Shown: positions 1 to 53,044 of the stretch, one piece after another
How positions within the stretch are numbered: position 1 is the stretch's first letter
Layout of the letters: every line of letters starts with the position of its first letter
Assembly: GCA_030390025.1 (NCBI GenBank)
Contig: CM059432.1
Coordinates: 34,908,001-34,972,000 of the forward strand
Source of the DNA: Squalus acanthias
Lineage: Eukaryota
DNA length: 64,000 bases
Direction of reading: 5' to 3'
Notes under the pieces: model-generated
The model's input: the letters and a program-made list of their open reading frames with translations, nothing else
Databases searched by the model: none
What the model was told of the DNA's origin: nothing
Program-made: the position numbers and the translations under genes

Positions 1-492
1 TTGTCAAAATTGCAATGATTGATGGCGGGTTGGGAACCCGCTGCGAACCCGCCTCCATGTAAGTATCCAAAGCGTCAGGCCTGCGATTTCAGAACAGACC
101 CGACACCAAGCGGCGGGGGAGGCATTTAGGATACTTAACTGCTTATTAACTGCTTGTTAAATACTATTTTGCCAGCATTTTCCTATTTTCCCACATTTTC
201 AACGGCATTCACGTCGTTCAGAGATCACATCAGGTAAGTATGTCGGGTGTTCAATCGAGCTGAATAGTTCCCAGCTGCAACTGCAGTATAAAATCTAACC
301 TTTCACATCTGTTCAGTTTGCAATGTCAGAAGTTGCTGATTTCAGGATTGGGAAGACACATTTGATCTGTATCGAGGCTGTAAGTGTGTGTTGTAAACTC
401 TATATGCACTGACACCTCCTTGGAATAACTTCTCTCCCCATTGACTGATTGCTTCTACCATCTCATCCTCAACTGCCATATATAACAGCAGA

Positions 493-8148: not shown

Positions 8149-8944
8149 TCACAAGGGTAGTCATTTGGGTGTTCTATTGTGTTTATTTTTGAAATGCCAT
8201 CCGTGAATTGTTGTGATAAAAAAAATTTGATGGCAAACTGTTGAAGTTGTGGCCTGTGTCATTTCGCAAATGGGACTTCCACATTGAGGTCTTAGGGCGA
8301 CTTGTAATTGTCAGTATGGTGGTCAGAGTGATAGGAATCTGCAGGTTCTTGGCCATTGTCGATGCTCTGGTAAGAAGGTGCGAGGCAAAAGTGTTTGATT
8401 GGGCAGGCCAAGCAAATCTGGCCAAGATGAGTGCGTCCCTTGCATCCCAGGCAGCAATGTGCTCGCGTGCTGCTGCCGCTGGTTGATGCGCCTCCGCAAC
8501 CTGTTCATTGTCGCTCTCCTCCTCCTCATCTGAGGAGGCTATGCGATGAGTCACTTGTACCTCAGGCATCTGCAAGCCACGATGCTGTGCCATGTTGTGA
8601 AGTGCACAGCAGACCACAATGATTCTGGAGACCCTGGCTGCTGAGTACTGCAGGGCTCCACCTGATCTATCAAGGCACCTGAATCGCATCTTCAGCAAGC
8701 CAATGGTTTGCTCGATTATGGATCTGGTGGAAATGTGGATGGAGTTGTAGCACTCCTCAGCTTCGTTGGATGGGCTCCTCAACGGCGTCATTAACCACGT
8801 CTTCTGGGGCTAGCCCTTGTCTCCAAGTAGCCATCCGAAAAGTTGGTCTGGCGGACTGAAGAGTGGAGGCACACTAGACTGGCGCAGGATGAAGGAGTCA
8901 TGGCAACTGCCAGGGTACTTGGCGCAAACATGCAAAATTTCCTT

Positions 8945-9734
8945 ATTAGCATTCCGAAGGGACCGCTCCCTCCGCGACACCCTGGTCCACTCCTCAATCA
9001 CCCCTAACAGCCCTTCTCCTTCGCCTGGCACCTTCCCGTGCAAGCGCAGGAGATGCAACACCTGCCCTTTTACCTCCTCCCTTCCCACTGTCCAGGGCCC
9101 CAAACACCCCTTCCAGGTGAAACAGCGATTTACTTGTACTTCTTGCAATTTAATATACTGTATTCGCTGCTCACGATGCGGTCTCCTCTACATTGGGGAG
9201 ACCAAACGCAGATTGGGTGACCGCTTTGCGGAACACCTCCGTTCAGTCCGTAAGGGGGACCCCGAGCTCCCGGTGGCCTGTCACTTTAATTCTCCGCTTC
9301 ACTCCCACTCTGATCTCTCTGTCCTCGGCCTATTACACTGTTCCAATGTAGCTCAACGTAATTTCGAGGAACAGCACCTCATCTTTCGATGAGGCACCCT
9401 ACAGCCTTCTGGACTCAACATCGAGTTCAACAATTTCAGACAATAATCCCTGCCCCCATTTTTCATGCTGTATGATTTTGCCATTCCCATTTGCAACATT
9501 TTATCTTTCCTGCCTCTTACAAAAGCACAGTATGTTCTTTCAATTCCTTCCTCCCCTCCTAAACCTCCCCCCCCACCCCCCCACCCCCCCGTCTCTGCAC
9601 CTGCTTAATATCTGTTACATCTCCAGCTTTTTCCAGTTCTGATGAAGGGTCCCAGACCTGAAACGTTAACTCTGTTTCTCTCTCCACGGATGCTGCCTGG
9701 CCTGCTGAGTATTTCCAGCATTTTCTGTTGTTAT
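8945..9734 (+). mobile_element. Penelope-like element 3' fragment with GIY-YIG endonuclease
   Basis: [35 protein letters not shown] is a GIY-YIG signature. 14-bp TSD TGCAAAATTTCCTT at 8931-8944 and 9735-9748. Confidence 0.92.
9634..9674 (+). ncRNA. Minimal type I hammerhead ribozyme motif in the Penelope 3' region
   Basis: CAGTT-CTGATGA-A-GGGTC(CCA)GACCT-GAAA-CGTT^AACTCTG: both core boxes, stem II, palindromic stem III (AACGTT) and stem I (AGTT/AACT). Activity untested. Confidence 0.7.
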
Positions 9735-11870
9735 TGCAAAATTTCCTTCTTGTGGTCACACACCAGTTGCATGTTGAGGGAGTGGAAGCACTTGCGGTTG
9801 ACAAAAATACCTGGATTGTGATGGGGTGCCTTAAGGGCCACATGTGTGCAGTCAACGACGCCGTGCACTCTTGGAAAGCCTGCCAGATTAGCCAATCCAA
9901 CTGCACACGCGGTTACACTTGCTTGATCCTTGGAGAAGCTGATGTAATTGTGCGCGATGGCAAAGAGGGCATCGGTTACCTGCGTGATGCAAGTGTGTGC
10001 GGCCGCCTGGGAGACACCGCTGATGTCTGCTGTTGATCCCTGGAATGAGCCTGAAGCAAAAAAGTCGAGTGCGGTGGTGACTTTGACGGCCACTGGTAAG
10101 GGGTGTCCACCCGCTCCTCTGGGCTCCAGGTCTTGCTGCAGCATTGCGCAGATGTCACCCACTACCTCTCGCAAAAGTCTGAGCCTCCTTTGGCACTGCT
10201 GCTCAGTCATGTTGAGGTAGCTCATCCTCTGTCTGTAGACCCTGTTTTGGGGGTACCTCCTGCGGCGATGTGCTTCCATGCGCTGGCACCTTCTGGCCTG
10301 TGCAGCTTCAGGTGGGTGAGCAGCAGCTTGGCGCTCCTGTTGTTGCTGCTGCTGTTGGTGCTGCTGTTGTTCATGGTTCTGCTGCTGCCGCGGCTGGTCT
10401 TCGTCCGAATCTGAGGTCCAGGAGGAAAGGAAATAAATGGTTCCCATTCTTCTGGTATATGCCTCAGTTGAGGAAGCGCTCAGTCAAGGTGGGGAGAGGG
10501 GTTTCCCAGGAGGTCACACTGGAGATGGGTCTCAGGCTCCAAACTTCCACAACAATGAGTAGGCCTGCTAAAAGTTCCCCCAGACCTGAGACAACAAAGT
10601 TCTGCCACCTGCAAATGATGATTGCTGAAAACTCTTTTTAATGGTGGAGCTGCAGCTGCTAGTAAGCAGTCCACTTAACTGGCGTGTTCCAGAGGAGATG
10701 TGCAGCATGGGGGAAATGTGTTAAATTCAGAAAGGCCTCTCAAAATGGGATTATAGAGGCACTTAACTGGTTGTTAAGGGCCTTAAGGGCCTATCCCGCC
10801 TCTTGGAGTCTGAAACCCCGATTTTGGGAAAATTGCTCGGAGGCGGGCTGGAGGCAGGATCGGATCTGCCCGCTATTTTTTGCGATTTTAACACCTCACA
10901 TGCCTCCAAACCCACCTCCTCAGGCCTGGCAAAATCGAGCCCTCTGATGGAGTGAGGTGCCAATACCAAGTTGCCACCTTTTGAGTTGTTGTCATTGCAT
11001 AACGTTGAGGGTGAGTGTGAGGGGTGCATAGTAAGCTGGGGATGTGATTCTGTAGATAGGGAGACAGGGATGGGTGATGGTGCAAGGGATGTTGGGTTGA
11101 GTTAGGATGTGCAGGAGTAGGGTTGGCAATACAGAGTGATGGGGATGTGATGACAGGCACAGCAGAATTAAGGTAAGTTTGCTTTTATACTCATTTTTCC
11201 TGAACGCAGGAAATCATTGAACCTCTTCCTGCATTGCATCCAGGTGCGAGCAACAACAGACCTTGCAGTGACCTCCTCAGCTATTTGCAGCCAGGCTGCC
11301 TTGGTCTGGTGAGGAGGTCTCCTCCTTCCATTCCCAGGGAACAGAGCCTCCCTGCGTCCTCTGACTCCTTCCACAAGAACATGGAGGGAGTCATCGTTGA
11401 AGCGTGGCGCCGCCCTCTGTCTCTGTGCAGTCAATTTGCAATCAAGCAGCACTTAGGAGTGTGGAAGTAGAAGTGAGAGCAAATGAGGACACGGCCCCCT
11501 TAAATACACCGGCAGCAAACGCGTCATCAGAGGAGCTCAACTGACCTGCACCTAGTGATTGGGCCGGGTAACGCACACTGAGGGCTTAACAAGCCCAATC
11601 AACGGAAAATTGTTTGCGCAGAGCGGCTGCAGCCGGGAGCAGGACCGGAACCCGCCAACTACCTCTCCCGCCACGAACGCGCCTCAGCTGATAAAATCCA
11701 GCCCCATGTGTTTATCTAGGTATCCCTTAAATGTATCTATGTGATTCGCCTCAACTACTCCTTGTGGCAGAAAGTTCCACATTCTAACCACTCTCTGGGT
11801 AAAGAAGTTGCTCCTGAATTCCCTATTGGATTTATTCGTGACTATCTTATATTTATGGTCCCTAGTTTTG

Positions 11871-13446: not shown

Positions 13447-15165
13447 GGCTGCGATTTTCCCTACCTCGGCGGGTCCGTGGTGGGCGACGTCGGTGGCGGG
13501 TCCCAGCCTCGCTGCTGCCTCCGACATGACTTTCCGATGATTGGGCTTGTGAAGCCTGCCTAGCGAGTTTCCCAGCCAAATGAAGGAAGCGGGTCTGATG
13601 ACGTCATTTGATGACGTGTTATCAGCCAGTTTCCTTAAAGGGACCATGTGTAAATTTACTTTCACAGTGTTCTACAGCATTGAGGTACTGACAAGCACAG
13701 TGCACGGCTGCACACAGCCTCTCCCATGACTCCCTCCATATGCTTATGGAGGGAGTCACAGCACGCAGGGAGGTTCTCTTTCCTTCCAATGGGCAGAAGA
13801 AACTCGCTGGGGGGGCTTAAAGCAGCCTGGTTGCACATTGCACAGGAGAGCACAAGCAGGGATGTTGTCAGGAGGACCAGGCTGCAGTGGCGCAAACGTT
13901 TCAATGATCTCAGTAGATCACGAAACGTTACTGCAAAGCCACACTCAACCTCACCCTGCTGTGCCTCTCATCACATCCCCATCACTCTGCCTTCCCTACC
14001 CTACTCCTGCACACCAACTTACTTTGCACCTCCACCCATCCCTCTCTATCTACATTATCACTTCCCTATCTCACTAGCCACCCCTCACACTCACCCTCAT
14101 CCTAGTGCAATCATACCAACTAACAACACACAAGGGTAGTCACTTGGGTGTTTTATCCAATGTTCATGTAAAGTTTCTGTTACTGTGCTGTCAAACATTG
14201 AAATCTTTATTTTCAACACTTTGCGTTCTTGGACAGATTTGTGTGCGCCTTTGGAAGTGGATTAGTGAGCTGCAGTGAATGGTGAGACATAACGGTACCC
14301 CCGCAATGGTGATGAGTGTGAAAGGAATGGCTTGGGCATTGTAGCGTGCTTTATGGTGTTGGTGTGGGGTGGTGCCAACCTGGCGCATCATGTGGCAGCC
14401 AGGGTGTGCAGCGTCAAGTGAAGGAAATGTGGCCATGGTGAGGCCATCCCTGGCGTCCCGGGCAACAATGTGGTCGGGTGCTGATGCCCTCTGTCCTGTG
14501 CAGCATCAGGTGATTGTGGAGAAGGTTGGTGTGGTTTTTGGTGCTGCTGGTGTGCCTGGTTTATGCTGGTGTTGAGGCTGATCGTGGTGGGATTCTGAGG
14601 ACCAAGGTGAGAGAGTATAAAGTGCAGCCATGCTGATGGAATAGATGGCAGGTGAAGTAGAGAAAATCAGAAGCGATCTGTCAATGGTGGGAGAGGTAAT
14701 GAGGTCAGACTGGATGGAGACTTGTGTAAAGATTGCAGCATTCTGAATCTGTAGTAGAAATGCAGTTTAGAGAAGCTAGTGGCTAAGGGAACATTTCTCA
14801 ATCAGCTGGGCGCTTTGACTTGACATTTGAAGCTGTCAATTCATCAGCTGATTCAATGGCCACTGACCTCCCGCCTCAGCTTCACTGACGAGGTCTAGGC
14901 ACAGTGGGAAACCGATGGGTGACCTGTCAAATCCAAAAAGCTGAGAAAAAACATTGTTAAGTGGCTGTGAACAAGCCACTAATGATTTGAATTCGAGGTC
15001 CCCCGCAGCTGCCTGTCAGGTCTGCTCAGCGCTGGCGGACCCGACGTCGGGAAATGCAGGTGTCCGCGTTTTGACAGTGGGTTCCCGACCCGCTGTCAAT
15101 CATTTTAAATTTCACAGCTGACCCGCCACCAATCGGGTCTGCTGAGCGCCGGCAAAATCGCGGCC
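13447..15165. mobile_element. Internally deleted Harbinger derivative
   Basis: GGCTGCGATTTT...AAAATCGCGGCC with TSD TTA; retains a Myb exon-1 remnant (AAWLHIAQE..LQWRKRFNDLSR, ~13700-13925). Confidence 0.9.
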
Positions 15166-15702: not shown

Positions 15703-17775
15703 GAAAGAAAGAAAGAAGAAAGACTTGCATTTATGTAGCACCTTTCACGGCCTCAGGAAGCCCTAAAGCGCTTTACAGCCAATGAAGTACTTTTGAAGTG
15801 TAGTCACTGTTGTAATGTAGGAAACGTGGCAGCCAATTCGCACACAGCAAGATCCCACAAATAGCAATGTGATAATGACCAGATAATCTGTTTTAGTGAC
15901 GTTGGTTGAGGGGTAAGTATTAGAGAACTCCCCTGCTCTTCTTCTAAATAATGCCATGGGATCTTTTATGTCCACCTGAGAGGGAAGATGGGGCCTCGGT
16001 TTAATGTCTCATCCAAAAGACAGCACCTTCAACAGTGCAGCTCTCCCTCAGTACTGCACTGGAGTGTCAGCAGTCCCTCAGTACTGCACTGGAGTGGAGC
16101 TCTCCCTCAGTACTGCACTGGAGTGGAGCTCTCCCTCAGTACTGCACTGGAGTGCAGCTCTCCCTCAGTACTGTACTGGAGTGGAGCTCTCCCTCAGTAC
16201 TGCACTGGAGTGTCAGCAGTCCCTCAGTACTGCACTGGAGTGCAGCACTCCCTCAGTACTGTACTGGAGTGGAGCACTCCCTCAGTACTGCACTGGAGTG
16301 GAGCTCTCCTTCAGTACTGCACTAGAGTGCAGCTCTCCCTCAATACTGCACTGGAGTGGAGCTCTCCTTCAGTACTGCACTAGAGTGCAGCTCTCCCTCA
16401 GTACTGTACTGGAGTGCAGCTCTCCCTCAGTACTGTACTGGAGTGTCAGCACTCCCTCAGTACTGCACTGGAGTGCAGCTCTCCCTCAGTACTGCACTGG
16501 AGTGCAGCTCTCCCTCAGTACTGCACTGGAGTGTCAGCACTCCCTCAGTACTGCACTGGAGTGCAGCTCTCCCTCAGTACTGCACTGGAGTGCAGCTCTC
16601 CCTCAGTACTGCACTGGAGTGCAGCTCTCCCTCAGTACTGCACTGGAGTGCAGCTCTCCCTCAGTACTGTACTGGAGTGGAGCTCTCCCTCAGTACTGCA
16701 CTGGAGCGGAGCTCTCCTTCAGTACTGTACTGGAATGTCAGCACTCCCTCAGTACTGTACTGGAATGTCAGCACTCCCTCTGTACTGGAGTGTCAGCACT
16801 CCCTCAGTACTGTACTGGAGTGGAGCTCTCCCTCAGTACTGCACTGGAGTGCAGCTCTCCCTCAGTACTGTACTGGAGTGCAGCTCTCCCTCAGTACTGC
16901 ACTGGAGTGCAGCTCTCCTTCAGTACTGCACTGGAGTGGAGTTCTCCCTCAGTACTGCACTGGAGTGCAGCACTCCCTCAGTACTGCACTGGATTGTCAG
17001 CAGTCCCTCAGTACTGCACTGGAGTGCAGCTCTCCCTCAGTACTGCACTGGAGTGTCAGCTCTCCCTCAGTACTGCACTGGATTGTCAGCAGTCCCTCAG
17101 TACTGCACTGGAGTGTCAACTCTCCCTCAGTACTGCACTGGAGTGCAGCTCTCCCTCAGTACTGCACTGGAGTGTCAGCACTCCTTCAGTACTGCACTGG
17201 ATTGTCAGCAGTCCCTCAGTACTGCACTGGAGTGTCAGCAGTCCCTCAGTACTGCACTGGAGTGCAGCTCTCCCTCAGTACTGCACTGGAGTGCCGCTCT
17301 CCCTCAGTACTGCACTGGAGTGCAGCACTCCCTCAGTACTGCACTGGGGTGCAGCACTCCTTCAGTACTGCACTGAAGTGGAGCTCTCCCTCAGTACTGC
17401 ACTGGAGTGCAGCTCTCCCTCAGTACTGCACTGGAGTGGAGCTCTCCCTCAGTACTGCACTGGAGTGCAGCTCTCCCTCAGTACTGCACTGGAGTGCAGC
17501 TCTCCCTCAGTACTGCACTGGAGTGCAGCTCTCCCTCAGTACTGCACTGGAGTGCAGCTCTCCCTCAGTACTGCACTGGAGTGTCAACTCTCCCTCAGTA
17601 TTGCACTGGAGTGCAGCTCTCCCTCAGTACTGCACTGGAGTGTCAACTCTCCCTCAGTACTGCACTGGAGTGCAGCTCTCCCTCAGTACTGCACTGGGGT
17701 GCCAGCCTAGATTTTGTGCTCTGGAGTGGGGCTTGAACCCATGACCTTCTGACTCAGAGGCCAGACTACTACCAC
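15703..17775 (-). mobile_element. Deu-domain SINE (SacSINE1-like) with internal tandem expansion
   Basis: (GAAA)n tail, Deu-like core (gccatgggatcttttatgtccacctgag...cctcggtttaatgtctcatcc) and tRNA-like head at 17705-17775. Confidence 0.8.
16036..17700. repeat. 29/30-bp minisatellite, ~57 units
   Basis: Unit gcagctctccctcagtactgcactggagt with variants; the same word occurs once in other SINE copies, e.g. at ~27004. Confidence 0.97.
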
Positions 17776-17834: not shown

Positions 17835-17984
17835 TAATCGTACTGTGCTGCATCTTCAAGTGCCGAATACCCAGGACAAAGAAGGAGATCGAAGCACGTT
17901 ATGCCCAGCGTCAGGCCGCAAAGAAGTATGCCAACACCTTGGATAATGTCCCTCCTCTGAATGAGCTGACTGAGATGCCAGGAG
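17835..17984 (+). CDS. tmie: TMIE internal coding exon (equivalent to mammalian exon 3)
   Basis: Encodes [49 protein letters not shown], closely matching mammalian TMIE as I recall it ([47 protein letters not shown]). Polypyrimidine-AG acceptor (tttctttccag, ends 17834), GTGAGC donor at 17985, 150 bp, phase 1/1. Confidence 0.95.
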
Positions 17985-22191: not shown

Positions 22192-22289
22192 CATTTACCT
22201 TTATCTGTTTCTGCGGGTCTCTCTCTCTCTTTTACATGCATCCCCACACATACTCTTTCTCTCCGTCTTTTTGTGAGTATCTATGACCG

Positions 22290-24103
22290 GGTTGGGGCGG
22301 GGGGAGCTCCGAGGTGGGCGGGAAACCCCGGGAGGCCGGGTTTCCCGCAGTCCCTGCTGACTTTAACGGCAGGGCCTGATTTGAATGTGAGGCCTCGGAT
22401 TCCCGCCCGCAGCCAGCCAGATTGAGAGGCTGGCTGGCTGCGGACGGGTAGGCCTCAGGAGCAAGGGGTCGATGCGGGGACAGGATCGCGGGAGGTGGAT
22501 CAGCAATCGGCAGGGGTCGGGGATCGGGGAGGGGGGGAGAGAGCATCGGCAGGGGTCGGAGATCGGGAGGGGGAGAGCATCGGCAGGGGTCGGGGATCGG
22601 GAGGGGGGAGAGCATCGGCAGGGGTCGGGATCGGGAGGGGAGAGAGCATCGGCAGGGGTCGGGGATCAGGAGGGGGGAGAGAGCATCGGCAGGGGTCGGG
22701 GATCCAGGGGGGGGGGCGGGGAGAGAGCATCGGCAGGGGTCGGGGATCGGGAGGAGGGAGAGAGCATCGGCAGGGGTCGGGGATCCGGGGGCGGGGGGAG
22801 AGAGCATCGGCAGGGGTCGGGGATCGGGAGGAGGGTGAGAGCATCGGCAGGGGTCGGGGATCGGTGGGGGGGAGAGAGCATCGTCAGGGGTCGGGGATCA
22901 GGAGGGGGTAGGGAGCATCGGCAGGGGTCGGGGATCAGGAGGGGGGAGGGAGCATCGGCAGGGGTCGGGGATCAGGAGGGGGTAGGGAGCATCGGCAGGG
23001 GTCGGGGATCAGGAGGGGGTAGGGAGCATCGGCAGGGGTCGGGGATCAGGAGGAGGGTGAGAGCATCGGCAGGGGTCGGGGATCAGGAGGAGGGTGAGAG
23101 CATCGGCAGGGGTCGGGGATCAGGATGGGGAGAGAGAGCATCGGCAGGGGTCGGGGATCAGGAGGAGGGTGAGAGCATCGGCAGGGGTCGGGGATCAGGA
23201 GGAGGGTGAGAGCATCGGTAGGGGTCGGGGATCAGGAGGGGGTAGGGAGCATCGGCAGGGGTCGGGGATCAGGAGGAGGGTGAGAGCATCGGCAGGGGTC
23301 GGGGATCAGGAGGGGGTAGGGAGCATCGGCAGGGGTCGGGGATCGGTGGGGGGAGGGAGCATCGGCAGGGGTCGGGGATCGGTGGGGGGGAGAGAGCATC
23401 GGCAGGGGTCGGGGATCAGGAGGGGGTAGGGAGCATCGGCAGGGGTCGGGGATCGGTGAGGGGAGGGAGCATCGGCAGGGGTCGGGGATCAGGAGGGGGG
23501 AGGGAGCATCGGCAGGGGTCGGGGATCGGAAGGGGGGAGAGAGCATCGGCAGGGGTCGGGGATCGGGGGGGGGAGAGAGGATCGGCAGGGGTCGGGGATC
23601 GGGAGGGGGGAGAGCATCGGCAGGGGTCAGGGAGCGGGAAGGGGAGGGTCGGCTGGGGATCGGGGTGGGGAGAGAGAGGATCGGGGCCGGCCCCATCATC
23701 ATCGTTGGTGGGGGGATGCCTGGGGGTGGGGGGTTTCCTGGGGGGTGATCGGAGGCCTCATGAGGGGGTCTCCAATTGTGGGGGGTGGGTATGGTTGGGA
23801 CCCTGGATCCAGGAGGTAGGTATAAAGCCGCTTACCTCCTGGATGCAGCAGTCCCCGCCTCTGTTTAACTGCTGGGTTTCAAGAATTGTGTGAAACTCGT
23901 CCACAGGCTGTTAAACACAAAATGGAGGGGAAAAAAGAGGCTGCCAGCCTCATTAAAATATTTAAATTGAGGTAACGCCCCCGGGAGCGGCAAAACCGGA
24001 AGTGAGCGGGTTGGAGGCGGCATCAGGTCGAGGATCCCATTTTTAACACTTTAACTGCCCCCACGCTCCACACCCACCCATTTTTTAGGAGAAAATTCCG
24101 GCC
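22290..24103. mobile_element. Harbinger-type non-autonomous element containing a G-rich minisatellite
   Basis: Right TIR-like AAAATTCCGGCC ending 24103. Shares blocks (cttacctc..atgcagcagtccc, cagcctcattaaaatatttaa) with 35270-35400. Left TIR not identified. Confidence 0.6.
22500..23660. repeat. G-rich ~33-bp minisatellite
   Basis: Unit gagcatcggcaggggtcggggatc(a/g)ggagggggga, ~35 copies. Confidence 0.95.
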
Positions 24104-26619: not shown

Positions 26620-27582
26620 AAGAGGGGCAGAGGAGATTTACCAGAATTACACCAGGGATAAAGAAAAGAAAGCAAGACTTGCATTTATATAGCACCTTTC
26701 ATGACCACTGGACGTCTCAAAGCGCTTTACAGCAAATGAAGTACTTTTAAATGTAGTCACAGTTGTAATGTAGGAAACACGGCAGCCAATTTGCACGCAG
26801 CAAGCTCCCACAAACAGCAATGTGATGATGACCAGATAATCTGTTTTAGTGATGTTGATTGAAGGATAAATATTGGCCAGGACACCGGGGATAACTCCCC
26901 TGCTGTTCTTTGAAATAGTGCCACGGGATCTTTTACATCCACCTGAGGGAGCAGACGGGGCCTTGGTTTAACATCTTATCCAAAAGACAGCACCTCCAAC
27001 AGTGCAGCACTCCCTCAGTACTGCACTGGAGTGTCAGTCTAGAATTGTGTGCTTAAGTCTCTGGAGCAGGACTTGATACCCACAACCTTCCTGACTCAGA
27101 GGCAAGGGTGCTACCAACTGAGCAATGGCTGACACAATGATGAGGGACTTTAGTTATGTGGAGCGACCAGAGAAGATGCAATTGATCTCCTTCGAGCAGA
27201 GAAGGTTAAGGGGAGATTTAATAGGAGGCGTTCAAAATTATGAAGGGTTTTGATAGAGAGAAACTGTTTCCACTGGCAGGAGGGTTGGTAATCAGAGGAC
27301 ACAGATTTAAAATAATTGGCAAAAGAACCAGAGGGGAGATGAGGAGAAAAATAATTTACGCAGCGAGTTATGATGATCTGGAATGCATTGGCTGAAAGGG
27401 TGGAAGCAGATTCTGAAGTAACATCCAGAAGGGAATTGGATATATACTTGAAAGGGAAACATTTGCAGGGCTATGGGGAAAGAGCGGGTGAGTGGGATTA
27501 ATTAGATAGCTCTCTCAAAGAGCCGGCACAGGCACAATGGGCTGAATGGCTTCCTTCTGTGTGGTAAGATTATATGATTCTA
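26620..27582 (+). mobile_element. CR1 3' fragment interrupted by a Deu SINE (26660-27137, - strand)
   Basis: agatttaccaga..ccagggat|gagggactttagttatg continuity across the SINE; CR1 tail near 27540-27582. Confidence 0.8.
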
Positions 27583-29193
27583 CGAAGATTGGAGCAACAT
27601 TGAAAGAATTTTTTTCATTCTTTGGGTGTGATCGTTGCTGGCAAAGCTGTCATTTATTGCGCATTCCTAGCTACCACTAAGCAGGTCGTGGAGATAGCAG
27701 CTTAATACAACTTGAATGTCTTGCTGGGATACTTCAGAGGCCATTAAGAGTCAATCATGTTGATGTAGGACTGGAGTCACATGTAGGCCAAACTGGGAAA
27801 TTGTTTTGCGAGCCTAAATCCACCTAAATTATCCGCACATTTCAACATTTGAAGGATCTGGATCAGTTACAGTACAGGATCCTTCCCAATGCTTTTCGCA
27901 TTTTCATGGCTGCACTACAATCTCTTTAAACAGACCACGTCCCTTGGAACCAAAACTTGGGTCAGCATTCTTCATCGTGTAACAGTTAACACAACCCAAC
28001 AATTAACTCCAAACTGTGGCAAATTGTTTACTGGACAATATATAAGATGTCCACTACCTTTTCCTGTTACCTCATAAGAACATAAGAAGATAAGAAATAA
28101 GAGCTGGAGTAGGCCATTCAAGCCTGCTCCGCCATTCAACATGATCATGGCTGATCTTCTACCTCAACTCCACTTTCCCACACTATCCCCATATCCCTTA
28201 ATTCCCTTCGTTCCCAAAAATTTATCGACCTCTGTCTTGAATATACTCAACAATGAGCATCCACAATCCTCTGGGGTAGAGAATTCCAAAGATTCACAAC
28301 CCTTTGAGTGAAGAAATTTCTCCAATTCTCAGTCCTAAATGGCCTACCCCTTATTCTGTGACTGTGACCCCATGTTCTAGATTCCCCAGTCAGGAGAAAC
28401 ATTTTCTCAGCATTAACCCTGTCAAGGCCCTTAAGAATTTTATATGTTTCAATTAAATCACCTCTCATTCTTCTAAACTCTAAGGAATATAGGCCTAGCC
28501 TACTCAACCTCTCCTCATAGGGCAATCCCCTCATCCCAGGAACCAGTCTAGTGAACCTTTGCTGCACTCCCTTTAAGGCAAGGATGTCTTTCCTTAGGTA
28601 AGGAGACCAGAACTGTACACAGTACTCCAGGTGTGGCCTCACCAGTGCCCTGTATAATTGTAAAAAGACTTCTTTACTCTTAGGGGTAAAAATTCAGTTG
28701 GTTGCGCCTCCCGTTAGCGCCTTAAGAGGGCGCTAATGGGGCGCAAAGCCGCTAACGCCCGGGCGCAGCGATGTTTGCGCCGCTCGGGAACTTAACTAGA
28801 GATTGTGCGGCGGCGCTAAAACTTACCGCTGCGACCACCTGCGCGCGCAGATTGTGACGTCATTCCATGGTGCAACGCCCTTGTGGCGCCCTGGAGCGGA
28901 AATTGAGTGGCGCCCCCTGCCTTACCGCCTGGCGCATCCAACGACTGGAAGACTGGAACGCTATCAATCGCTGTGGGGCTGGGGGGGGCGCTATTTAAAG
29001 GGGGCCTCTTCCTGTCTTTTTCTGTGGTCAACATTTTTGCACCACTCGTTCTGAGAGAGAGAGAGAGATTCGGAGAGAGCGAAAGAGAGACTTCTGCATT
29101 GACTCAACGCTTTGTGAGGTAGTTTTGCCTATTGATCCTAACTTCGCTAGTACTTTAGTTGCTGTCCTTCATTACTTTGCTTGCAAAGAGAAT

Positions 29194-30357
29194 ATGGGGG
29201 CTGCACTGATTGGGGGCGTCGTCCTGCTCCAGCTGAATCGGAGGATACAGAGACGCAGAGAGAGAGTGGCAATGATGGCCAGACGGAGGAGGGCCAACAG
29301 GCGTATGTACAGGAGAGCTTACCCTCCCAGGGTATATCGTGAACAGCTCTCCTACATCCATATGTCTGAGGAGCTGTGTTTGCGAAGGCTGCGATTCAGC
29401 AAGGAGGTGGTCACTGAGCTCTGCCACCTGCTGCTGCCAGATCTGCAGCCTCAACTGAGGTCCAGGACGTCTCTGTCGGTGGCAGTGAAGGTCACAGTGG
29501 CTCTCAACTTTTACGCTACTGGCTCATTTCAAGCTGCTGCTGGGGACCTCGCCAATATCTCCCAGTTCGCGGTGCATTGCTGCATCCGGCAGGTCACAAA
29601 TGCCCTCTTTAAAAGGAGACGAGAGTTCATCTCTTTCCCCATGACCCCAGACAAGCAGCGTGACCGCGCTCTGGGCTTTGCGAGGGTAGCGGGCTTCCCC
29701 ATGGTGCAGGGCGCCATTGACTGCACGCATGTGGCTTTGCGTGTTCCGCATGAGAATGCCGAGGAATTCCGGAACAGAAAGGGGTTCCATTCCTTGAATG
29801 TTCAGTTGGTCTGTGACCACAGACAGCTGATACTCGCTGTCAATGCCCACTATCCTGGCAGCTGCCACGATGCTTTTATCCTGCGCCAGACTACTGTGGC
29901 AGAACTTTTCGAGGCACCGCATCAGCCAGTTGGTTGGCTTCTCGGGGACAAGGGGTATGCATTGAGCACCTGGCTGATGACACCGCTCCGTACGCCCAAC
30001 ACCCCTGCTGAGCTGCGGTACAATGAGAGCCATCAAGCTACCAGGAACATAATTGAGCGCACAATCGGCGTGCTGAAGCAACGGTTCCGCTGTCTCGACC
30101 ATTCTGGAGGAGCCCTGCAGTACTCGCCTGAGCGAGTATCGAACTTCGTAGTCGTGTGCTGCATGTTGCATAACATGGCAATCCTCAGGACCCAGCCAAT
30201 GCCACCAGGCCTTGGAGCACCACCAGAGGAGGAGGAGGAGGAAGAGGAGGAAGAGGACGAGGAGGATGATCAGCAGCAGCACCAAGGCGGGAGGGCGGCC
30301 CACAATGGTCAAACTGCAAGGGCCGTCCGTCAACGGCTAATAGCAAGCCGCTTCTAG
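29194..30357 (+). CDS. Harbinger transposase (HARBI1-like DDE nuclease), 387 aa
   Basis: Uninterrupted ORF from ATG 29194 with [45 protein letters not shown] and an acidic tail; TATTTAAA at 28992. Confidence 0.93.
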   Translation: MGAALIGGVVLLQLNRRIQRRRERVAMMARRRRANRRMYRRAYPPRVYREQLSYIHMSEELCLRRLRFSKEVVTELCHLLLPDLQPQLRSRTSLSVAVKVTVALNFYATGSFQAAAGDLANISQFAVHCCIRQVTNALFKRRREFISFPMTPDKQRDRALGFARVAGFPMVQGAIDCTHVALRVPHENAEEFRNRKGFHSLNVQLVCDHRQLILAVNAHYPGSCHDAFILRQTTVAELFEAPHQPVGWLLGDKGYALSTWLMTPLRTPNTPAELRYNESHQATRNIIERTIGVLKQRFRCLDHSGGALQYSPERVSNFVVVCCMLHNMAILRTQPMPPGLGAPPEEEEEEEEEEDEEDDQQQHQGGRAAHNGQTARAVRQRLIASRF

Positions 30358-30616
30358 GGCCCCTGCCATTGCTAACAACATTAATGAACCCAGCACGCAA
30401 CCCCTAAGCCGGCCAAGGCACCAATAATTCCAACCACCAACCATGTATATTTTGAATACAGAAACTTATTTATTTTACAAACTCTGTGTGTGTCAATTCC
30501 TCATGACAAACTCATAGAAATAAACACAAAAAAACAGTCAATAACATAACTGGTTCTCACAACCTGGAGATAATGTCCAAAACACTAAACAAAAGTTGGA
30601 CCATGAACCTCGACCT

Positions 30617-31626
30617 TTAATAAAAAAATGACCAGCATTTTGTCACACCTCCTACTTTTTGCCCTTCGAGGGTGATCCTTCCCTTGCGCACTTCCCCCCT
30701 TCTAACCCTACTGCTCCTCTGTAATGGGACCTCAGTGGCTGTAGCAAGGCTGGTGGAAGGCTGCTGCTCGTCAGACCCTGACACTGCAGATGCCCCTGAA
30801 GGACGGCCTCGACCAGTTCTGGGCCTGGAGGGCCCGGCTGCAGACTGCACCAACTCTGCATGGGCGGCAGCAGTCTGTCCTACAGGCGGTGGCAAGTGCA
30901 GTGGAGAAGTGACAGTGTTGGCAGCAGGAATGCTGTCATCGTGAGAGAGGACAGCAACTCCCTGCTCGCCCGACACACTGGCACTCCCACGGGGCAGCAC
31001 TTCAGCATCCGGAGCAATCTGCTGGAGAACAGATTGCTGGCCTGCTGCGGCGCGGTGACAGCCCCGGGGACATGTGCACGAACCATCGAGGTTGGCAGCA
31101 GTCTGTGCTTGCGTGGCCTCAATCTGAGTCTGCATGAGAGCAGTCAGAGATGGGATCACGGCAGCCAGTGACTGAATTGCAGTACTAAGCGTTAGTGTGG
31201 CATCCGCCTGTGCTACAGCGAAGTGCTCCACACTCCTTGCCAGTGACTCAATGCATTCGGGCACCCTTCCCACTGCACCCATGAGCTCAGTGTGCATGCC
31301 CACTGCCTGGGTGTTCATTTCTGCGATCAGCCGCTCCTCCTCTGCGTCCATTGCAGTAGGAGTGTCTGGCATACTCTCCCTCTGGGGAGAAGGCCCCCGT
31401 TCTTCCCTACCCCAATGGCGTTGCTGCAGCCCGCTGGGTCCTGGAGCTTCACCCTCATCAGACCCTTCCCCCCTGCTCCCCTCCAGGGAAGGCGTGTTCC
31501 CAGTGTGGGCATGGGCTTCCTCGGGAGAGGGTGGCACTGATGCTCCGGCTTCCTCTTCCTCCTCGGCTGCAGCATCACTCCCAGTGGCAGCTTCAGGGCC
31601 CGTCTCCTCAGCTGGTGAATCACCAT
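30617..31626 (-). CDS. Myb/SANT-like protein of element G, exon 3
   Basis: cctgctttcag acceptor; the phase-1 join reads without a stop into the 306-aa ORF; spliced product 469 aa. Confidence 0.75.
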
Positions 31627-31785
31627 CTGAAAGCAGGGAGGTACAAGAGTGGCTTTAGCGTGAGGACAGGGTGGCAGTAAGGGAGGAATAAGTGCAGCGA
31701 GTTAGCAAGTTGGATTGAAAGTGTCAAAGGCTGGTGTTGTGAGGGACAAGTGGAAGGACAGAGGACAAAAAGGTGATGACCTTAC

Positions 31786-31948
31786 CATTGCTGTCCAGAA
31801 CGGGGTCGGCGTCTCCAGTGGCGACGGGACCGATCACCCGGCTTGCCACAATCCTGTGGACGCGCTCCTCAAGATCGCTGAGGGGTTGCAGCTGAGGCCG
31901 CCCTCCACCTGTCCGTTGCTGCTGTCTCCGATTATGCGCCAGCTTGGC
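31786..31948 (-). CDS. Myb/SANT-like protein of element G, exon 2
   Basis: tttttcttacag acceptor, AKLAHNRRQQQRTGGG..., GTAAG donor; 163 nt. Confidence 0.85.
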
Positions 31949-32178
31949 CTGTAAGAAAAAGGACAGCATCTGAGTAAATATACAGCCATGGTCTTGCCTG
32001 ATGTGCCTCCCATAGGTGAATAGCCCTTACTGTATGCAAAGTGTGGAATGTGTGTGTGTGTTTCATGAAAGGGCCATAGGTGTTGGATGAGTGTTGTGCA
32101 TTGGGGTTTTAAGACCCTCTGGCCATAGAGTGAGGTTGAGATGGAGGGATGGAGAGGTATTGAGAAAAAGCCACTCAC

Positions 32179-32415
32179 CCTGACGACCCGAGTGAGGTCG
32201 TTGAACTTTTTGCGGCATTGAGTATGGGTCCTGGGCACCATGCTCCTGGAGGAGACGCTCTGAGCCACCTCCCTCCACACTCTTCTGAACTCGCGTGGCA
32301 AAGGCCTCCTGCCACTCTCAGGGAAGAGCATACATCTTCTGCGCTCCACCGCGCCAACCAAAGCATCCAAGGCCCGCTCGGTGAAACGATGAGCTCGTTC
32401 TCTCACCCTCTCCAT
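32179..32415 (-). CDS. Myb/SANT-like DNA-binding protein of element G, exon 1
   Basis: MERVRERAHRFTERALDALV..VWREVAQSV..RTHTQCRKKFNDL; GTGAGT donor; 237 nt, phase 0. Confidence 0.88.
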
Positions 32416-34764
32416 CCTTGGCAGCAAAATGGATTCACAGGTCTCTCCAGGCCGAGATTCAAGGCTGCAATGAGCAGGGTGTGGCTGGGGAGCAAGTTGG
32501 CCCCCCCCGCTTTAAGAAGTGGCCGGCGCCAGTGTGTCTGTGTTCCCTCGCTAACTGGCAGCAGCTGCGCTGCGCTCACGCTCTGAGTTAGCGCCTCACT
32601 GCTCGGCCTTTGCGCCTTAAGACAGGTGTGCAGCGCCTGATTTAGCGCTCCACTCACCTCCCGGGGCGGTAAAAGTGAAGTTTCCAGTCAGTGCCGATAA
32701 TTAGCGCCAGGCGCTAATATTTGCGTCCAGACGATATTTGCGCCCCAAACGGGGCGCGACCTAATTTTTCCCCCTTCTACTCTAATCCCTTTGTAACAAA
32801 AGCTAACATACCATTTGCTTTCCTAATTGCTTGCTGTACCTGCATGTTAACTTTCTGTAATTCATGTACAAGAACACCCAGGTCCCTCTGAGTGCAAACA
32901 TCTCTCACCATTCAAAAAATATTCTGCTTTTTTGTTTTTCCTACCAAAGTGGATAACTTCACACTTCCCCACATTGTAATCCATTTGCCGTGTTCTTGCC
33001 CACTCAGTCAAAGTCAACCTGTCTATATCTCTCTGCAGCCTCTTTGCATCCTCCTCATAGCTTACTTTCCCATCTAACTTTGTATTATAAAACAAACTTG
33101 GATAAGTTACACTCAGTCCCTTCATCTAAGTCATTAATATAGATTGTAAAAAGCTGAGACCCAAGCATTGATCCTTGCAGTACCCTACTAGTTACAGCCT
33201 GCCAACCTGAAAAAATCCTGTTTATTCCTACTGTCTGTTTTCGTCCATGAACCAGTCCTCAATCCATGCTAATATATTACCCCCAATACCATAATTTTGT
33301 GTAATAACCTCTTGTGTGGCACCTTATCAAATGCTTTTTGAAAATCCAAATACACTACATCCATTGATTCCCCCTTATCCATCCTACTCGTTACATCTTC
33401 AAAAAAACTGACAGATTTGTCAAACACAATTTTCCCTTTCATAAAACCATGTTGACTCTGCCTAATCATATTATGATTTTCTAAGTGCCCTGTTACCACA
33501 TCCCGAATAATAGATTCTAGCATTTTGTCTACTACTGATGTCAGGCTAACTGGCCTATAGTTCCCTGTTTTTTCTCTTCCTCCTTTCTTAAATAGTGAGG
33601 TTATGTTTGCTACCTTCCAATCCTTGGGGACTGTTCTAGAATCTAGGGAATTCTGGAAGATTAATACCAGTGCATCCACTATCTCTGCAGCTACCTCTTT
33701 TAAAACCCTAGGATGCAGGTCGTCAGGTCCAGGGGATTTGTTGCCACTTAGTCCCATTAATTTCTCCAGTACTATGTCTTTACTTATACTGATTTCTTTA
33801 AGTTCCTCATTCTCTCTAGACCCTTGGTTCCCCATTATTTCCAGAATGTTTTTTGTGTCTTCTACCGTGAAGACAGATGCAAATTATTTGTTTAATGTCT
33901 CTGCCATTTCCTTATTGCCCATTATAATTTCCCCAGTCTCTGCCTCTAATGGGCCCACGTTTACTTTCACTAATCTCTTCCTATTTACATACTTATGGAA
34001 ACCTTTACAATCTGTTTTTATGTCTCTTGCTAATTTACTCTCATATTCTTTTTTCTCCTTGTTAATCAATTTCTTGGTCTTCCTTTGCTGAATTCTAAAA
34101 TCCTCCCAATCCTCAGGCTTACTATGCTTTTTGACAACATTATAAGCCTCTTCCTTTGGTCTAATACTATCTTTAACTTCTTTTGTTAGCCACGGTTGGA
34201 CCACTTCTCCTGTGCGGTTTTTGTGCCTTAAAGGAATGTATATTTGTTGTAAATTATGTACTAAATCTTTAAATGCTAGCCATTGCTTGTCTACCGTCAT
34301 ACCTTTTAATTTTTTCCCAATCTATCTTAGTCAACTCGCCCCTCATACCTACGTAGTTTGCTTTGTTTAGATTGAAGACCCTAGTTTCGGATTTAAATAA
34401 ATCACTTTCAAACTCAATATAAAATTCTATCATATTATGGTCACTCTTCCCTAAAGGCGCCTTTACTACAAGGTTATTAATTAACCCTTTCTCATTGCAC
34501 AATACTAGATCTAAAATAGCCTGTTCCCCAGTTGGTTTCTCAACATACTGATCTAGAAAACTGTCTTGCATACATTCCATGAATTCAATCTCCACACTAT
34601 TACTTCAAATTTGGTTTGCCCAGTCTATGTGTAGATTAAAGTCCCCCATGATTACTGTACTGTACTCAAGTCTCTGGAGTAAGACTTGAACCCACAACCC
34701 ATTGTCATCAGGCCTCCAACATCCCACTTCTGCTTTAGAGCCACTGTTGTACATAATGACAGTT

Positions 34765-39142: not shown

Positions 39143-39694
39143 GGGGGGAAAATTGGGACGCGCCCCCTTTGGGGCGCTAACTTCGCCGGGGCCCAACTTT
39201 TAGCGCCCTGAAAAAATTACCGCCCCCGTGGCCAAAATTCACCGGTAGCGCCCCAAGAGGGAGGCGGGGTGCTACTGGAAGTGCCCCACCTCCCTCTTAG
39301 GGCGCTGCGAGTGAATATCGCGGCGCTACGTGCCGCGGTATTGCAGGCCTTCCTCCCCTTATTAAAGGGGAGGGGCCTAGCCCGGGGCCCAGCTGGGCCA
39401 CCAGGGATCGGAGTGCCGGCAAAACAGGGGGGCTGCAGAGGAGGCCTGGGATGGCAGAGTGGGGCAGGTGCTGGCAGGCGGCCAGCAACAAAACTGGCCG
39501 CCCGGCAACTCCCCTTTAATTTGCGCCGCCCCGGCCGCAGGTAGGCTCCCCTGACCCCGTCGGACATAGCGACTGGCGGTAAGTCAGGGGGCGCTACCGA
39601 AGATCGCGGCCGGGGCGCGAGCGGGGCGCTGCGCACGGCAATGACTTCATCCATGGGGCTAACGGGAGGTGCAAAGCAACCGAATTTTTGGGCC
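39143..39694. mobile_element. Harbinger MITE with G-family ends
   Basis: GGGGGGAAAATT...AATTTTTGGGCC, TSD CTT; homologous to 47180-47727 and 50221-50922. Confidence 0.88.
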
Positions 39695-47179: not shown

Positions 47180-47727
47180 AGGGAAAAATTGGGTCGCACT
47201 CCCTTTGGGGCGCTAACTTCGCCGGGGCGCTACTTTTAGCGTCCCGAAAAAGTTACCGCCCCCGCGCCTGAAATTCAATGGTAGCACCCCAAGCAGGAGG
47301 CGGGTTACTACTGGGAGCGTTCCCCCTCCCTCTTGGGGCGCTCCAGCCCAATATCGCAGTGTTATGTGCCGCAGCACCACGCGCGCAGGCATGTCGCGCC
47401 GCGGTACTGCAGGCCTTCCTCCCCTTATTAAAGGGGAGGGGCCTTGCGCGGCGCAAACTGGGGCCCTGCTGGGCCACCAGGGAGCGGGGTGCCGGCAAAA
47501 GAGCCCGGCACTCAAGAGGAGTGCCAGGCTGCCTGATCGCGGCCGGCACCCCGCTCCCTGGTGGCAGAGCGGGCAGGTGCTGGCAGGCGGCCAGCAAAAA
47601 AAATGGCCGCCCGACACCTCCCCTTTAAATATCGCCGCCCCGGCCACACGTACTCCCCCCTGACCCTGTCGGATATAGCGTCCGGCGGTACGTCAGGGGG
47701 CATGACCCAAGTTTGCGGCCAGGGCAC
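47180..47727. mobile_element. Harbinger MITE with G-family end, truncated
   Basis: Homologous to 39143-39620; second TIR missing. Confidence 0.8.
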
Positions 47728-47949: not shown

Positions 47950-49300
47950 CACCCCAGGAAACAATCTAGTGAACCTTCATAGCACCCCCTCTAAGGCAAG
48001 TATATCCTTCCTTAGGTAAGGAGATCAAAACTGTGCACAGTACTCCAGGTGTGGTCTCACCAAAGCCCTATATAATTGCAGCAAGACTTCCTTACTATTA
48101 TACTCCAACCCCCTTGCAATAAAGGCCAACATACCATTTGCCATCCTAATTGCTTGCTGTACCTGCATGTTAACTTTCAGTGATTCGTGTACAAGGACCC
48201 ACAAATCCTCTGCATACCAACATGTCTTTCACCTTTTAAAAAATATTCTGCTTTTCCATTCTTCCTACCAAAGTGGATAATTTCACACTTGCCCACATTA
48301 TAATCTGCCACCTTCTTGCCCAATCACTTAACTGGTCTATATCCCTTTACAGTCTCGTTGCATCCTCCTCACAGCTTACTTTTCCTCCTAGCTTTGTATC
48401 ATCAGTTACACTCAGTTCCCTCATCTAAGTCATTGATATAGGTTGTAAATAGCTGAGGCCCAAGCACTGATCCTTGCAGCACCCCACTAGTTACACCCTG
48501 CCATCCCAAAAATGATCCATTTATTCCTATTCTCTTTTTTCTGTCCGTTACCCAATCCTCAATCCATGCCAATATATTACCCCCAATCCCATGAGCACTA
48601 ATCTTGTGTAACAACTGTTTGTGTGGCACCTTATTGAATGCTTTCTGAAAATCCAAATATACTACATCCACTTGTTCTCCCTTATCTACCCTGCTAGTTA
48701 CACTCTCAGAAAACTCTAATAGATTTGTTAAACATGATTTCCCTTTCATAAAACCGTGTTGACTCTGCCTAATCATATTGTGATTTTCCAAGTGCCCTGC
48801 TACCACGTCCTTAATAATAGATTCTAGCATTTTTCCTACTATTGATGCCAGACTAACTTTCTTGAACAGTGGGGTTACATCTGCTAATTTCCAATCCACG
48901 GGGACCATTATAGAATCTAGGGAATTCTGGAAGATCAAAACCAATGCATCCACTATCTCTGCAGCCGCCTCTTTCAAAACCCTAGGGTGTAGGTCATCAG
49001 GCCCAGGGGATTTGTTGGCTTTTAGACCCATTAATTTCTCCAATGCTATTTCTTTACTAATATTAATTACTTTAAGTTCCTTGGTTAACTACAATTTCTG
49101 GTGTGTTCTTTGTGTCTTCTACAGTGAAGACAGACACAAAATATTTGTTGAACGTCTTGGCCATTTCCTTATTCCCCATTATAATTTCTCCTGTCTTTGC
49201 CTCTAAGGGACCAGTGTTTGCTTTCACTAATCTCTTCCTTTTTGCATACTTATAAAAGCTCTTACAATTTGTTTTTATATTTCTTGCTAGTTTACTCTAT
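47950..49300 (-). mobile_element. CR1 LINE ORF2 fragment
   Basis: [42 protein letters not shown]. Confidence 0.9.
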
Positions 49301-49871: not shown

Positions 49872-51746
49872 AGGCTTGATTTTGCCAGTGCTCAGAGTGC
49901 GGGTTTGGAGGTGGGTCAGCTGTAAAAATAGCAAAGATTGACAGCGGGTAGGGTCTGTCAGCAGAGAACTGACCTGACACCAAGTGCGGGGGGACAATTG
50001 AGATCATTAAATGGCTTGTTAAGAGCCAATTTAATGGTATTTTGAGACTTCCTTCCAATTTTACGTGCTCCCCCACAGGTTACCCGCTGCTCGTGAGTTG
50101 AGTCTGCTCTGATGTTTCCGATAAGCAGAGAACTGCAGAAGTGGTGTAAAGGATGCCATGTTGCAGATGGTCAGTTTCAGAGCGCAGAAACTGTTGGTTA
50201 CTGCATTTGTAAGACATATAGGAGTAAAAATTCGGTTGCTTTGCGCCTCCAGTAAGTGCCCTCTTAGGGCGCTAACGGGGCGCAAAGCAACTAGCGCCCG
50301 GGCGCGGCGCCGCCCATGCCTCCCGCGAAATTCAGCGGGAGGTTAGCGGCAGCGGTAACCGGTAGCGCCCCGCGGTGCTGTGCCGCTGGCGATGACGTCA
50401 TCGCCATGCGCAGCGCCCCACTCGCTCCCCGGCCGCGATCTTCGGGAGCGCCCCCTGACTTACCACCGGACGCTATGTCTGACGGGGTCAGGGGGGCCTA
50501 CCTGTGGCCGGGGAGGTGCTATTTAAAGGCGAGGTGCGGAGCGGCCATTTTTGTTGCTGGCCACCTGCCAGCACCTGCCTGCGCTCCCGTCCCCAGGCTC
50601 CTGAACCGGCCCCCCCGCAGAGTGCCGGCTGCGCTCCAAGAGCCCGGTACTTCTCTTGAGTGCCGGGCTCTTTTGCCGGCACTCCCGATCCCCGGGGGCC
50701 CTTTAAGAAGGGGAGGAAGGCCTGCAATATCGCGGCGCGACGTGCGATATTCCCTCGCAGCGCCACAAGAGGGATGTGGGGTGCTTCCAGTAGCGCCCCA
50801 CTTCCCTCTTGGAGTGCTACCACTCAATTTCCGTCGCGGGGGTGATAATTTTTCCGGGGCGCTAAAAGTAGCGGCCCGGCGAAGTTAGCGCCCCAAAGGG
50901 GGTGCTACTCAATTTTTAGCCCATAGAGATTTCTTTAGCTTGCAAGTGTTTGTCCAATGTCACCTCATTGGAACAACCCCTCTCACCATTGACAGATCGC
51001 TTCTGTCATCTCACCTGCAGCTGACATCTATTGCAGTAACATCGGTGCCCTAGAAACTATCTCACCTTGCTCCGCTGATTCCTTCCACGCTCCACCCCAA
51101 CACCAACATCACTAGGCACACCAGCAGCACCAACAACAACACCAACCTTCTCCAACATCACCTGATGCTGCACAGGACATCAGCCCCTGACAACATTTCT
51201 GCCCGGGAGGCCAGCGATGGCATCACCATGGCCAGATTTACATCACTTGACGCTGTAAACCCTGGCTGCCACATGATGCGCCAGTTTGACACCCTCCCAC
51301 ACCAGCACCGTAAAGCATCCCTTTAATGTCCAAGCCATTCCATGCACACACATCACTATAGTGGTGGGGGGCGGGGGTGGTGGTCACTGGAACTCAGTAA
51401 GAAACTTCTTATGGAGGGAGTCATTGGAGAGCCTGGGTGCAACCGTCCACCTTTGTGCAGTGCTTGTGAGTATTTGCAGCACCTCAATGCTGTCAAACAC
51501 TGACAGAAAAACTGTCAAACTCAATGTGACCGTGGTCCCTTTAAGGAAACCGGCTGATGACACGTCATGAAATGACTTCATCAGACCCGCTTCCTGTTAA
51601 TTGGCCAGGAAGCCCACAGGGCGGGCTTAACAAGGGCCAATCAAGGGAAAATCCCTTTGACAGAGTGGCTGCAGCCGGGAGCGGGACCGGAAACCCGCAA
51701 ACAGCTATCCCGCCACCATTCCGACACCGCTGAGAAAATCCAGCCC
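49872..51746. mobile_element. Non-autonomous Harbinger E
   Basis: AGGCTTGATTTT...AAAATCCAGCCC, TSD AAC; internal blocks related to 13447-15165 in reverse orientation. Confidence 0.85.
50221..50922. mobile_element. Harbinger MITE F nested in E
   Basis: GGAGTAAAAATT...AATTTTTAGCCC, TSD ATA; left end resembles the left end of element G. Confidence 0.9.
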
Positions 51747-52706: not shown

Positions 52707-53044
52707 CTGCAGCAGAAGCGGAAAAAAAGAATGAGATTCCTACTGTCTCCGCGCAAGTTCCTGCTGATGGATCCAAGAAAGAGGTCAAAAAGAAGGAGGG
52801 GCAGAAGAAGGACGGCGCTAAAGGGGACAAGGATGGATCAAAGGGCGAAACAAAGGATCAAGCCAATAAAAAAGGAGCAGGACAGAAAGGGGCAGGACAG
52901 AAAGGGGCAGGACAGAAAGGGGCAGGAGCAAAAGGTGGTGGGAAGTCCGATGGTAAGGGAGCTGGTAATGCCAAAAGTGGTGGGAAGGCAGGAGCGAATG
53001 CCAAGGGAGGACCAAAGAAAGCTCCTGCTAAAAAATCTTCATAG
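52707..53044 (+). CDS. tmie: TMIE terminal coding exon, Lys/Gly/Ala-rich C-terminal tail
   Basis: Acceptor ttttcatattccatag ends 52706. A phase-1 join with the 17984 donor gives in-frame (A)AAEAEKKNEIPTVSAQV...KKAPAKKSS-TAG. A basic tail after the PPLNELTE motif is as expected for TMIE. Confidence 0.85.

Follow-up and report, generated by a model that had tools for sequence, protein, structure and literature searches.

In zebrafish Harbinger3_DR and in rice Ping and Pong, transposition needs two proteins encoded by the element: the Myb protein binds the ends and imports the transposase, and excision is usually precise (PMC2836001, PMC9710019, PMC9179366). The Myb protein of Harbinger3_DR recognises a 9-bp subterminal motif (PMC9710019), and the working vertebrate Harbinger model described in PMC2836001 is a reconstruction. 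A survey published in 2022 reported that the elephant shark, the one cartilaginous species it examined, has no Harbinger, and called for other cartilaginous fish to be studied (PMC9179366); the genome papers on the whale shark and the grey reef shark list Harbinger as a class of repeats (PMC8455134, PMC12498223). Here, we describe a two-gene PIF/Harbinger element in a 64,000-nucleotide stretch of Squalus acanthias DNA (assembly GCA_030390025.1, contig CM059432.1, positions 34,908,001 to 34,972,000), hereafter called the window. The element is ordinary in kind, a further member of the known PIF/Harbinger group, and is probably one full-length, mildly decayed copy of an abundant elasmobranch family, the near-complete relic of a past burst. 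A described shark family of this element was not found in the literature; subscription papers, Repbase and Dfam lay outside that search, so the family is possibly catalogued. The element and its parts, in window positions, are as follows, where TSD stands for target site duplication and TIR for terminal inverted repeat:

28683–32774, the PIF/Harbinger element, 4,092 bp
28680–28682, left TSD, TTA
28683–28694, + strand, left TIR, 12 bp, matching the right TIR in 11 of 12 bases
28695–28993, left subterminal region, rich in CpG, with TAGCGCC at four places (28715, 28729, 28812, 28987)
29194–30357, + strand, single-exon PIF/Harbinger transposase gene, 387 aa, Pfam DDE_Tnp_4 (E 1.4e-39)
30617–31626, − strand, exon 3 of the Myb/SANT-like gene, 1,010 nt including the stop
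30675–30676, 2-bp deficit relative to the majority form of the family, with the Myb frame probably shifted from codon 451 to the end
31786–31948, − strand, exon 2 of the Myb/SANT-like gene, 163 nt
32179–32415, − strand, exon 1 of the Myb/SANT-like gene, 237 nt, ATG at 32415, holding the Myb domain
32480–32762, right subterminal region, rich in CpG, with TAGCGCC at three places (32589, 32702, 32710)
32763–32774, − strand, right TIR
32775–32777, right TSD, TTC, one base off TTA

The structural marks of a PIF/Harbinger element are all present, namely a DDE_Tnp_4 transposase, a Myb/SANT gene, TIRs, a TSD and membership in a multi-copy family. Most of this anatomy had been read from the letters alone in an earlier note, which reported both TIRs with a near-perfect 3-bp TSD, an unbroken transposase with its DDE motifs, a three-exon Myb/SANT gene with GT-AG introns, CpG-rich ends and a position inside a tmie intron; the evidence given below bears out each of these. 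The two TIRs, identical in 11 of 12 bases, agree in 12 of 15 on extension and diverge beyond, and they are short with a G or A start, as is usual in the group. For the outside comparison, four of 23 listed public sequencing runs (X2, X12, X13 and X21) were aligned to positions 27200–34400 at 90% likeness. The 3-bp target duplication is proven by empty sites: on a paralogous copy, elsewhere in the window, of the long interspersed nuclear element (LINE) that the element interrupts, both flanks overlap by exactly 3 bases (48098–48100); the left flank, a single TTA and the right flank together align to the paralogous LINE at 85% over 232 columns with 1 gap; and contigs of X2 and X12 omit exactly 4,095 bases, that is, 4,092 plus 3. 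These empty-site joints have a depth of about 104–111, which fits paralogous LINE copies, and no listed piece spans the junction of this locus. Because the empty LINE paralog reads TTA, the right TSD (TTC) changed after insertion. The duplication is thus a 3-bp one of the TWA type, as judged from one insertion rather than from a family consensus.

The observed-to-expected CpG ratio reaches 1.13 and 0.89 at the two ends of the element, against 0.44 in the window and 0.12–0.25 in the flanking LINE. The TAGCGCC motif occurs 28 times in the window where 2.9 occurrences are expected; seven of them lie in the element ends and 20 of the 21 others in four related Harbinger-type end regions. By analogy with Harbinger3_DR, these motifs are probably candidate binding sites of the Myb protein.

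The transposase retains D176, D226, D252 and E288, and its AlphaFold2 model, built on a 62-row alignment, has a mean predicted local distance difference test (pLDDT) score of 89.8, with the first two aspartates within or beside strands and the glutamate in a helix. A Foldseek search with the model gave no match at E<=0.001, the top rows being mostly integrases and transposases, and a sequence-profile search of the PDB returned nothing below E 0.14. The best protein matches are elasmobranch gene models at identities of at most 66%, and the species-named top matches come from cartilaginous fish only, down to rank 75. Nearest are Pristiophorus japonicus proteins named 'putative nuclease HARBI1' (P0001–P0003, P0008 and P0009), which fall in the same 8-row clade; unlike the window protein, P0001–P0003 miss the equivalent of E288, and they represent other families or decayed copies. 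In the tree, the transposase joins sawshark sequences with weak support, outside all short-branch cross-species pairs. Three of its residues, L81, V184 and A256, are derived: the commonest residues among 120 homologs are Q (52), A (88) and P (70), respectively, and the majority form of the family carries these same residues. Residue 256 lies four residues past D252. A complex prediction for transposase residues 1–340 with Myb residues 214–349, made without alignments, scored 0.00, which is evidence neither for nor against interaction.

The Myb/SANT-like gene is convergent to the transposase gene, its introns have GT/AG ends, and its spliced frame runs for 469 aa plus a stop. The product matches Pfam Myb_DNA-bind_5 above the cut-off (E 3.7e-8). 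Word-based protein searches with exon 3 and with the Myb domain as queries returned nothing, and a HMMER search for homologs returned 75 proteins. The spliced product is colinear over both junctions with P0123 (residues 11–444, 38% identity, E 4e-65) and likewise with P0124 and P0129; since these homologs cross both junctions, the three-exon model is supported without RNA. Between the two convergent genes lie AATAAA signals at 30469 and 30519, one per strand.

Compared with the majority form seen in two of the three informative runs, this copy has a probable late frameshift in the Myb gene. Within a short dinucleotide repeat, two extra bases follow position 30675 at full depth in X12 (424.4 of 424.4) and in X13 (37.5 of 37.5). 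In the majority frame a stop comes seven residues on, after a short basic tail, whereas the window copy continues with 19 other residues (codons 451–469). The shift would change no more than the end of the basic tail, leaving the Myb domain and the helical middle region as they are, and its effect on function is uncertain. Among the 12 of 17 indel rows listed, no indel falls between 30675 and 32436. A locally shifted frame had earlier been suspected at another place in exon 3, the segment containing NLDG; we reject it, as the annotated frame fits the homologs. Of the six proteins tried, five had the anchor for the frame test: the annotated frame scores +7 against P0124 and +6 against P0121, with the other two frames at −12 to −33, it is favoured against P0127 (+10), and all frames are negative against P0123 and P0129. 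The AAGQQSVLQQI motif downstream of NLDG stays in register. Separately, several X2 joints jump back inside intron 1 of the Myb gene, from 32027–32038 to 31979–31991, which suggests that some copies of the family carry short duplications there.

The family is clearly abundant, dispersed and multi-copy, as seen from depth and from the many variant contigs in X2 and X12. Depth over the element in X2 (organism label A) is 4e5–1.7e6, against 2.2e3 in one largely unique flank bin, and a contig of the unique flank has depth 4.06; in X12 (102 million letters) the element contigs stand at depth 191–408. Depth in the runs does not give copy number, and a rough reading is hundreds to thousands of copies. 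The earlier note was right in calling this a two-gene Harbinger, and the window copy is close to the majority sequence: 20 of 1,673 bases differ over seven long pieces of X12 (1.2%) and 22 of 2,207 over six of the seven long pieces of X13 (1.0%). We excluded a second X13 variant of equal depth (14 of 244) and two X2 pieces (12 of 135 and 14 of 143), these being more diverged relatives. The unique flank differs from its X2 contig at 2 of 334 bases.

Eighteen of the 23 listed runs, from 11 studies and with eight organism labels and one unlabelled sample, hold 0.55–0.87 of the words of the element. Since the shares for labels B–H (0.56–0.67) equal those of the small label-A runs (0.55–0.58), labels B–H hold essentially the same majority sequence. 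The simplest reading of a near-identical family under eight labels in 11 studies is shared descent in a slowly evolving lineage; contamination is a possible source of the shared sequence. Small shares of element words occur in X19 and X20, and X21, a raw DNA run of label J of which about 6% was read, gave 81 partially fitting reads and holds at most a more distant relative. X23 (label E) has zero element words; shares of 0.57–0.59 were seen in two further label-E samples from that study.

Compared with described systems, the element shares with Harbinger3_DR a DDE transposase, a Myb-like gene, a 3-bp TSD and repeated subterminal motifs (PMC9710019, PMC2836001); activity, DNA binding and protein interaction were shown for the zebrafish element, whereas ours is known from sequence and likened to it by description. 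With PIF/Harbinger elements of the PHIS superfamily it shares a TWA TSD, two open reading frames, a TIR shorter than 60 bp with a G start and a length near the mean of about 4.1 kb (PMC4482050). A GGG start is described there for the TIRs of NuwaI, a group that Han et al. define by a CWG target. This copy has a TTA target, and further element ends in the window point to ATA among other triplets, so that any assignment to a subgroup is tentative. Harbinger-Snek of sea kraits (PMC8437027) and the coelacanth Harbinger (as cited in PMC9179366) resemble our family in high copy number, copies with both frames and non-autonomous derivatives; for these, in contrast, intact copies have been counted and there is some evidence of expression, where we have one copy with a probable late frameshift.

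The earlier note took the element to be apparently intact and recently or currently active, and named high divergence with a ratio of non-synonymous to synonymous substitution rates (dN/dS) near 1, or frameshifts in exon 3 relative to consensus, as findings that would speak against it. Intactness stands in part: the anatomy is complete and the frames are open, but codons 451–469 of the Myb gene are probably shifted, L81, V184 and A256 are derived, and one TSD base is mutated. An exon 3 frameshift relative to the majority is thus probably present at 30675, though absent at NLDG. Both reading frames of an autonomous active Harbinger would be expected to match the majority form, and the Myb frame appears to depart from it at 30675, less clearly so in X2. 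Divergence is low, about 1%, but the coding changes cannot be distinguished from neutral ones. In the tally, drawn from 40 of 328 substitution rows, 22 of them in the element, the sites where the majority of each of the three runs disagrees with the window base give 4 non-synonymous changes and as many synonymous ones, or 5 and 4 if a borderline change is included, against a neutral expectation of 71% non-synonymous (P 0.18–0.25). Under simulated neutral substitutions only (1.0–1.2%, 1,500 trials), both frames remained stop-free in 41–47% of trials, so that open frames say little about activity, and the claim of recent or current activity is unsupported. At the mutation rate of the epaulette shark (7e-10 per site per generation, 95% confidence interval 1.4–14.1e-10; PMC10587355), 1.0–1.2% corresponds to a rough 1.4–1.7e7 generations, with a range of 7e6–9e7.

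Several observations weigh against a decayed relic, and part of them fit a family that is still transposing, with this copy or its sub-lineage as a competent autonomous source that tolerates the late frameshift. The N/S tally comprises few changes, with a slight lean to the synonymous side. The rate comes from another shark species, is pedigree-based and is expressed per generation, the majority form need not be the parent of this copy, and the distance to the majority is an upper bound on insertion age if the parent belonged to a sub-lineage. All four acidic residues, kept in only 40 of 120 listed homologs, are kept here, together with open frames, canonical introns, subterminal motifs, CpG-rich ends and a confident transposase model, and the shift leaves 450 of the 469 Myb codons untouched, among them those of the Myb domain and of most of the basic C-terminal stretch. 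In the deep run X2, where some differences were left uncounted, the extra bases make up only 29% of the depth, and only 37% of the depth opposes the A256 allele; at 30675 and 29959 the window form is common in this run. The window form at 30675 may be shared or recurrent among copies, and it and A256 may mark a sub-lineage rather than private decay. On the other side stand the mutated TSD and four sites (29435, 29744, 31183 and 32361) at which the window base is contradicted by more than 99.9% of X2 depth and hence is not common to any large set of copies; at 31183 and 32361 the window base has zero depth, and the X2 sample therefore need not carry this copy. No spliced joint was found among the 15 of 292 joints listed, and the only run marked 'RNA?', X12, is so labelled by guess: it looks like DNA, because its contigs cross intron 2 (31603–31797) and the border of exon 1 and intron 1 and the flanking LINE is deep. 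On balance, we consider ongoing transposition from this copy or its sub-lineage unlikely, and we are equally doubtful of the broader view that the family transposes in a shark lineage where naturally competent two-gene copies exist, perhaps in this sub-lineage with its altered Myb tail.

The breadth of the family raises horizontal movement between the holder species, which is documented for Harbinger in fish and sea kraits (PMC9179366, PMC8437027) and would suit both the element words held by 18 of 23 runs under eight labels and the X13 pieces, about 99% identical to the window copy when most aligned X13 records are only 90–95% alike. The holder labels are coded, however, and relatedness and host-gene divergence lay outside the comparison. 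In X13 (label F) the element is 7–11x less deep than in X12; its depth of 20–40 is matched by the majority form of the flanking LINE (20–35), while conserved LINE stretches are about 1,000x deeper. A related species in which the copies are fewer would fit this pattern, as would traces of DNA from label A, and either accounts better than transfer for two unrelated repeats in step. With the slow evolution of sharks (PMC10587355, PMC8455134) also against it, transfer seems to us quite improbable. Domestication of both genes at this locus, in the manner of HARBI1/NAIF1 or the MSANTD genes, is more improbable still: the frames are open and the closest database matches bear the name 'putative nuclease HARBI1', but a domesticated pair would be single-copy, free of TIRs and TSD and conserved in orthologs, and here we find TIRs, a TSD, a multi-copy family, no database protein above 66% identity, derived changes at conserved positions and a tree position outside the short-branch pairs.

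Those short-branch, fully supported groups deserve mention in their own right. P0004/P0005, P0011/P0012, P0024/P0027, P0043/P0047, P0006/P0014/P0016/P0022 and P0040/P0046 comprise 14 'putative nuclease HARBI1' proteins that span distant sharks and rays, with 70–97% identity in seven pairs, and in every one of them one or more of the four acidic residues are missing. The pattern suggests several elasmobranch genes domesticated from Harbinger transposases (compare the MSANTD gene paper, PMC9392472).

The history that we favour, of a mildly decayed copy left by a past burst, would run as follows. The element entered at a TTA in an older LINE within the last tmie intron, duplicating the triplet, as shown by the empty sites. 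Judging from Harbinger3_DR and rice Ping/Pong, the Myb protein would bind repeated subterminal motifs, here probably those containing TAGCGCC, and would bind the transposase and carry it into the nucleus, where the DDE core would cut at the TIRs and insert at a TWA-type site. After insertion, the copy would have drifted by about 1% from the majority without detectable selection, a drift that presumably brought the TSD change, the changes at conserved transposase positions and the late Myb frameshift replacing the short basic tail. The burst would be young in sequence terms and probably millions of generations old, and the copy may be mobilisable in trans.

The copy supplies a concrete anatomy for an elasmobranch Harbinger family, and family copies about 1% from the majority are useful raw material; no structure of a close relative turned up in our PDB searches. 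The copy is a warning as well: where genomes mutate slowly, open frames together with 99% identity do not amount to current activity. If the family were still transposing, it would offer a natural, un-reconstructed vertebrate Harbinger for the study of two-protein transposition, and an active system in a group where the 2022 survey reports no Harbinger in its one species (PMC9179366).

The surroundings of the element comprise two tmie exons and the interrupted LINE:

17835–17984, + strand, tmie exon 5' of the host intron, Pfam TMIE (E 3.2e-21)
28079–28679, − strand, 3' part of the older, decayed LINE interrupted by the element
32778–34600, − strand, continuation of the same LINE, right limit approximate, Pfam RVT_1 (E 4.6e-12) at 33272–33883
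52707–53044, + strand, last tmie coding exon, predicted from a splice signal and open frame

Because the two tmie exons bracket an intron of 34.7 kb and join in frame, the element lies in the last tmie intron. Its position there is most likely incidental, one repeat among many in an intron of about 35 kb. The interrupted LINE is presumably of CR1/L2 type and differs at 19 of 339 bases from one X13 piece; the element is nested in it and hence younger than it, though not necessarily recent. As a speculation, the + strand AATAAA between the element genes, which is sense with tmie, might terminate tmie transcripts early. The last tmie exon itself is long and Lys/Gly/Ala-rich, with three GAGQK-type repeats and in-frame alternative acceptors.

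Other repeats of the Harbinger kind occur in the window. At 61210–62039 (− strand) there is a non-autonomous derivative, 77–82% identical to both element ends and with a short remnant of Myb exon 1; its far TIR was looked for and not found. Three related elements resembling miniature inverted-repeat transposable elements, with similar TIRs and TAGCGCC clusters, lie at 39143–39690, 47181–47725 and 50219–50917, the last with an apparent flanking ATA. Other Harbinger families have left several older two-gene copies, now interrupted, at 400–11700 and 13470–14720, with transposase pieces of 51–66% identity at 678–1145, 3605–4069, 8564–8938 and 9737–10306 and Myb pieces at 6256, 11204 and 13828. Finally, a tandem array with a unit of about 29 bp, the units about 90% alike, runs from 16034 to 17706 and ends about 130 bp upstream of the tmie exon, and a GC-rich tandem array with long repetitive open frames lies at 22237–23890.

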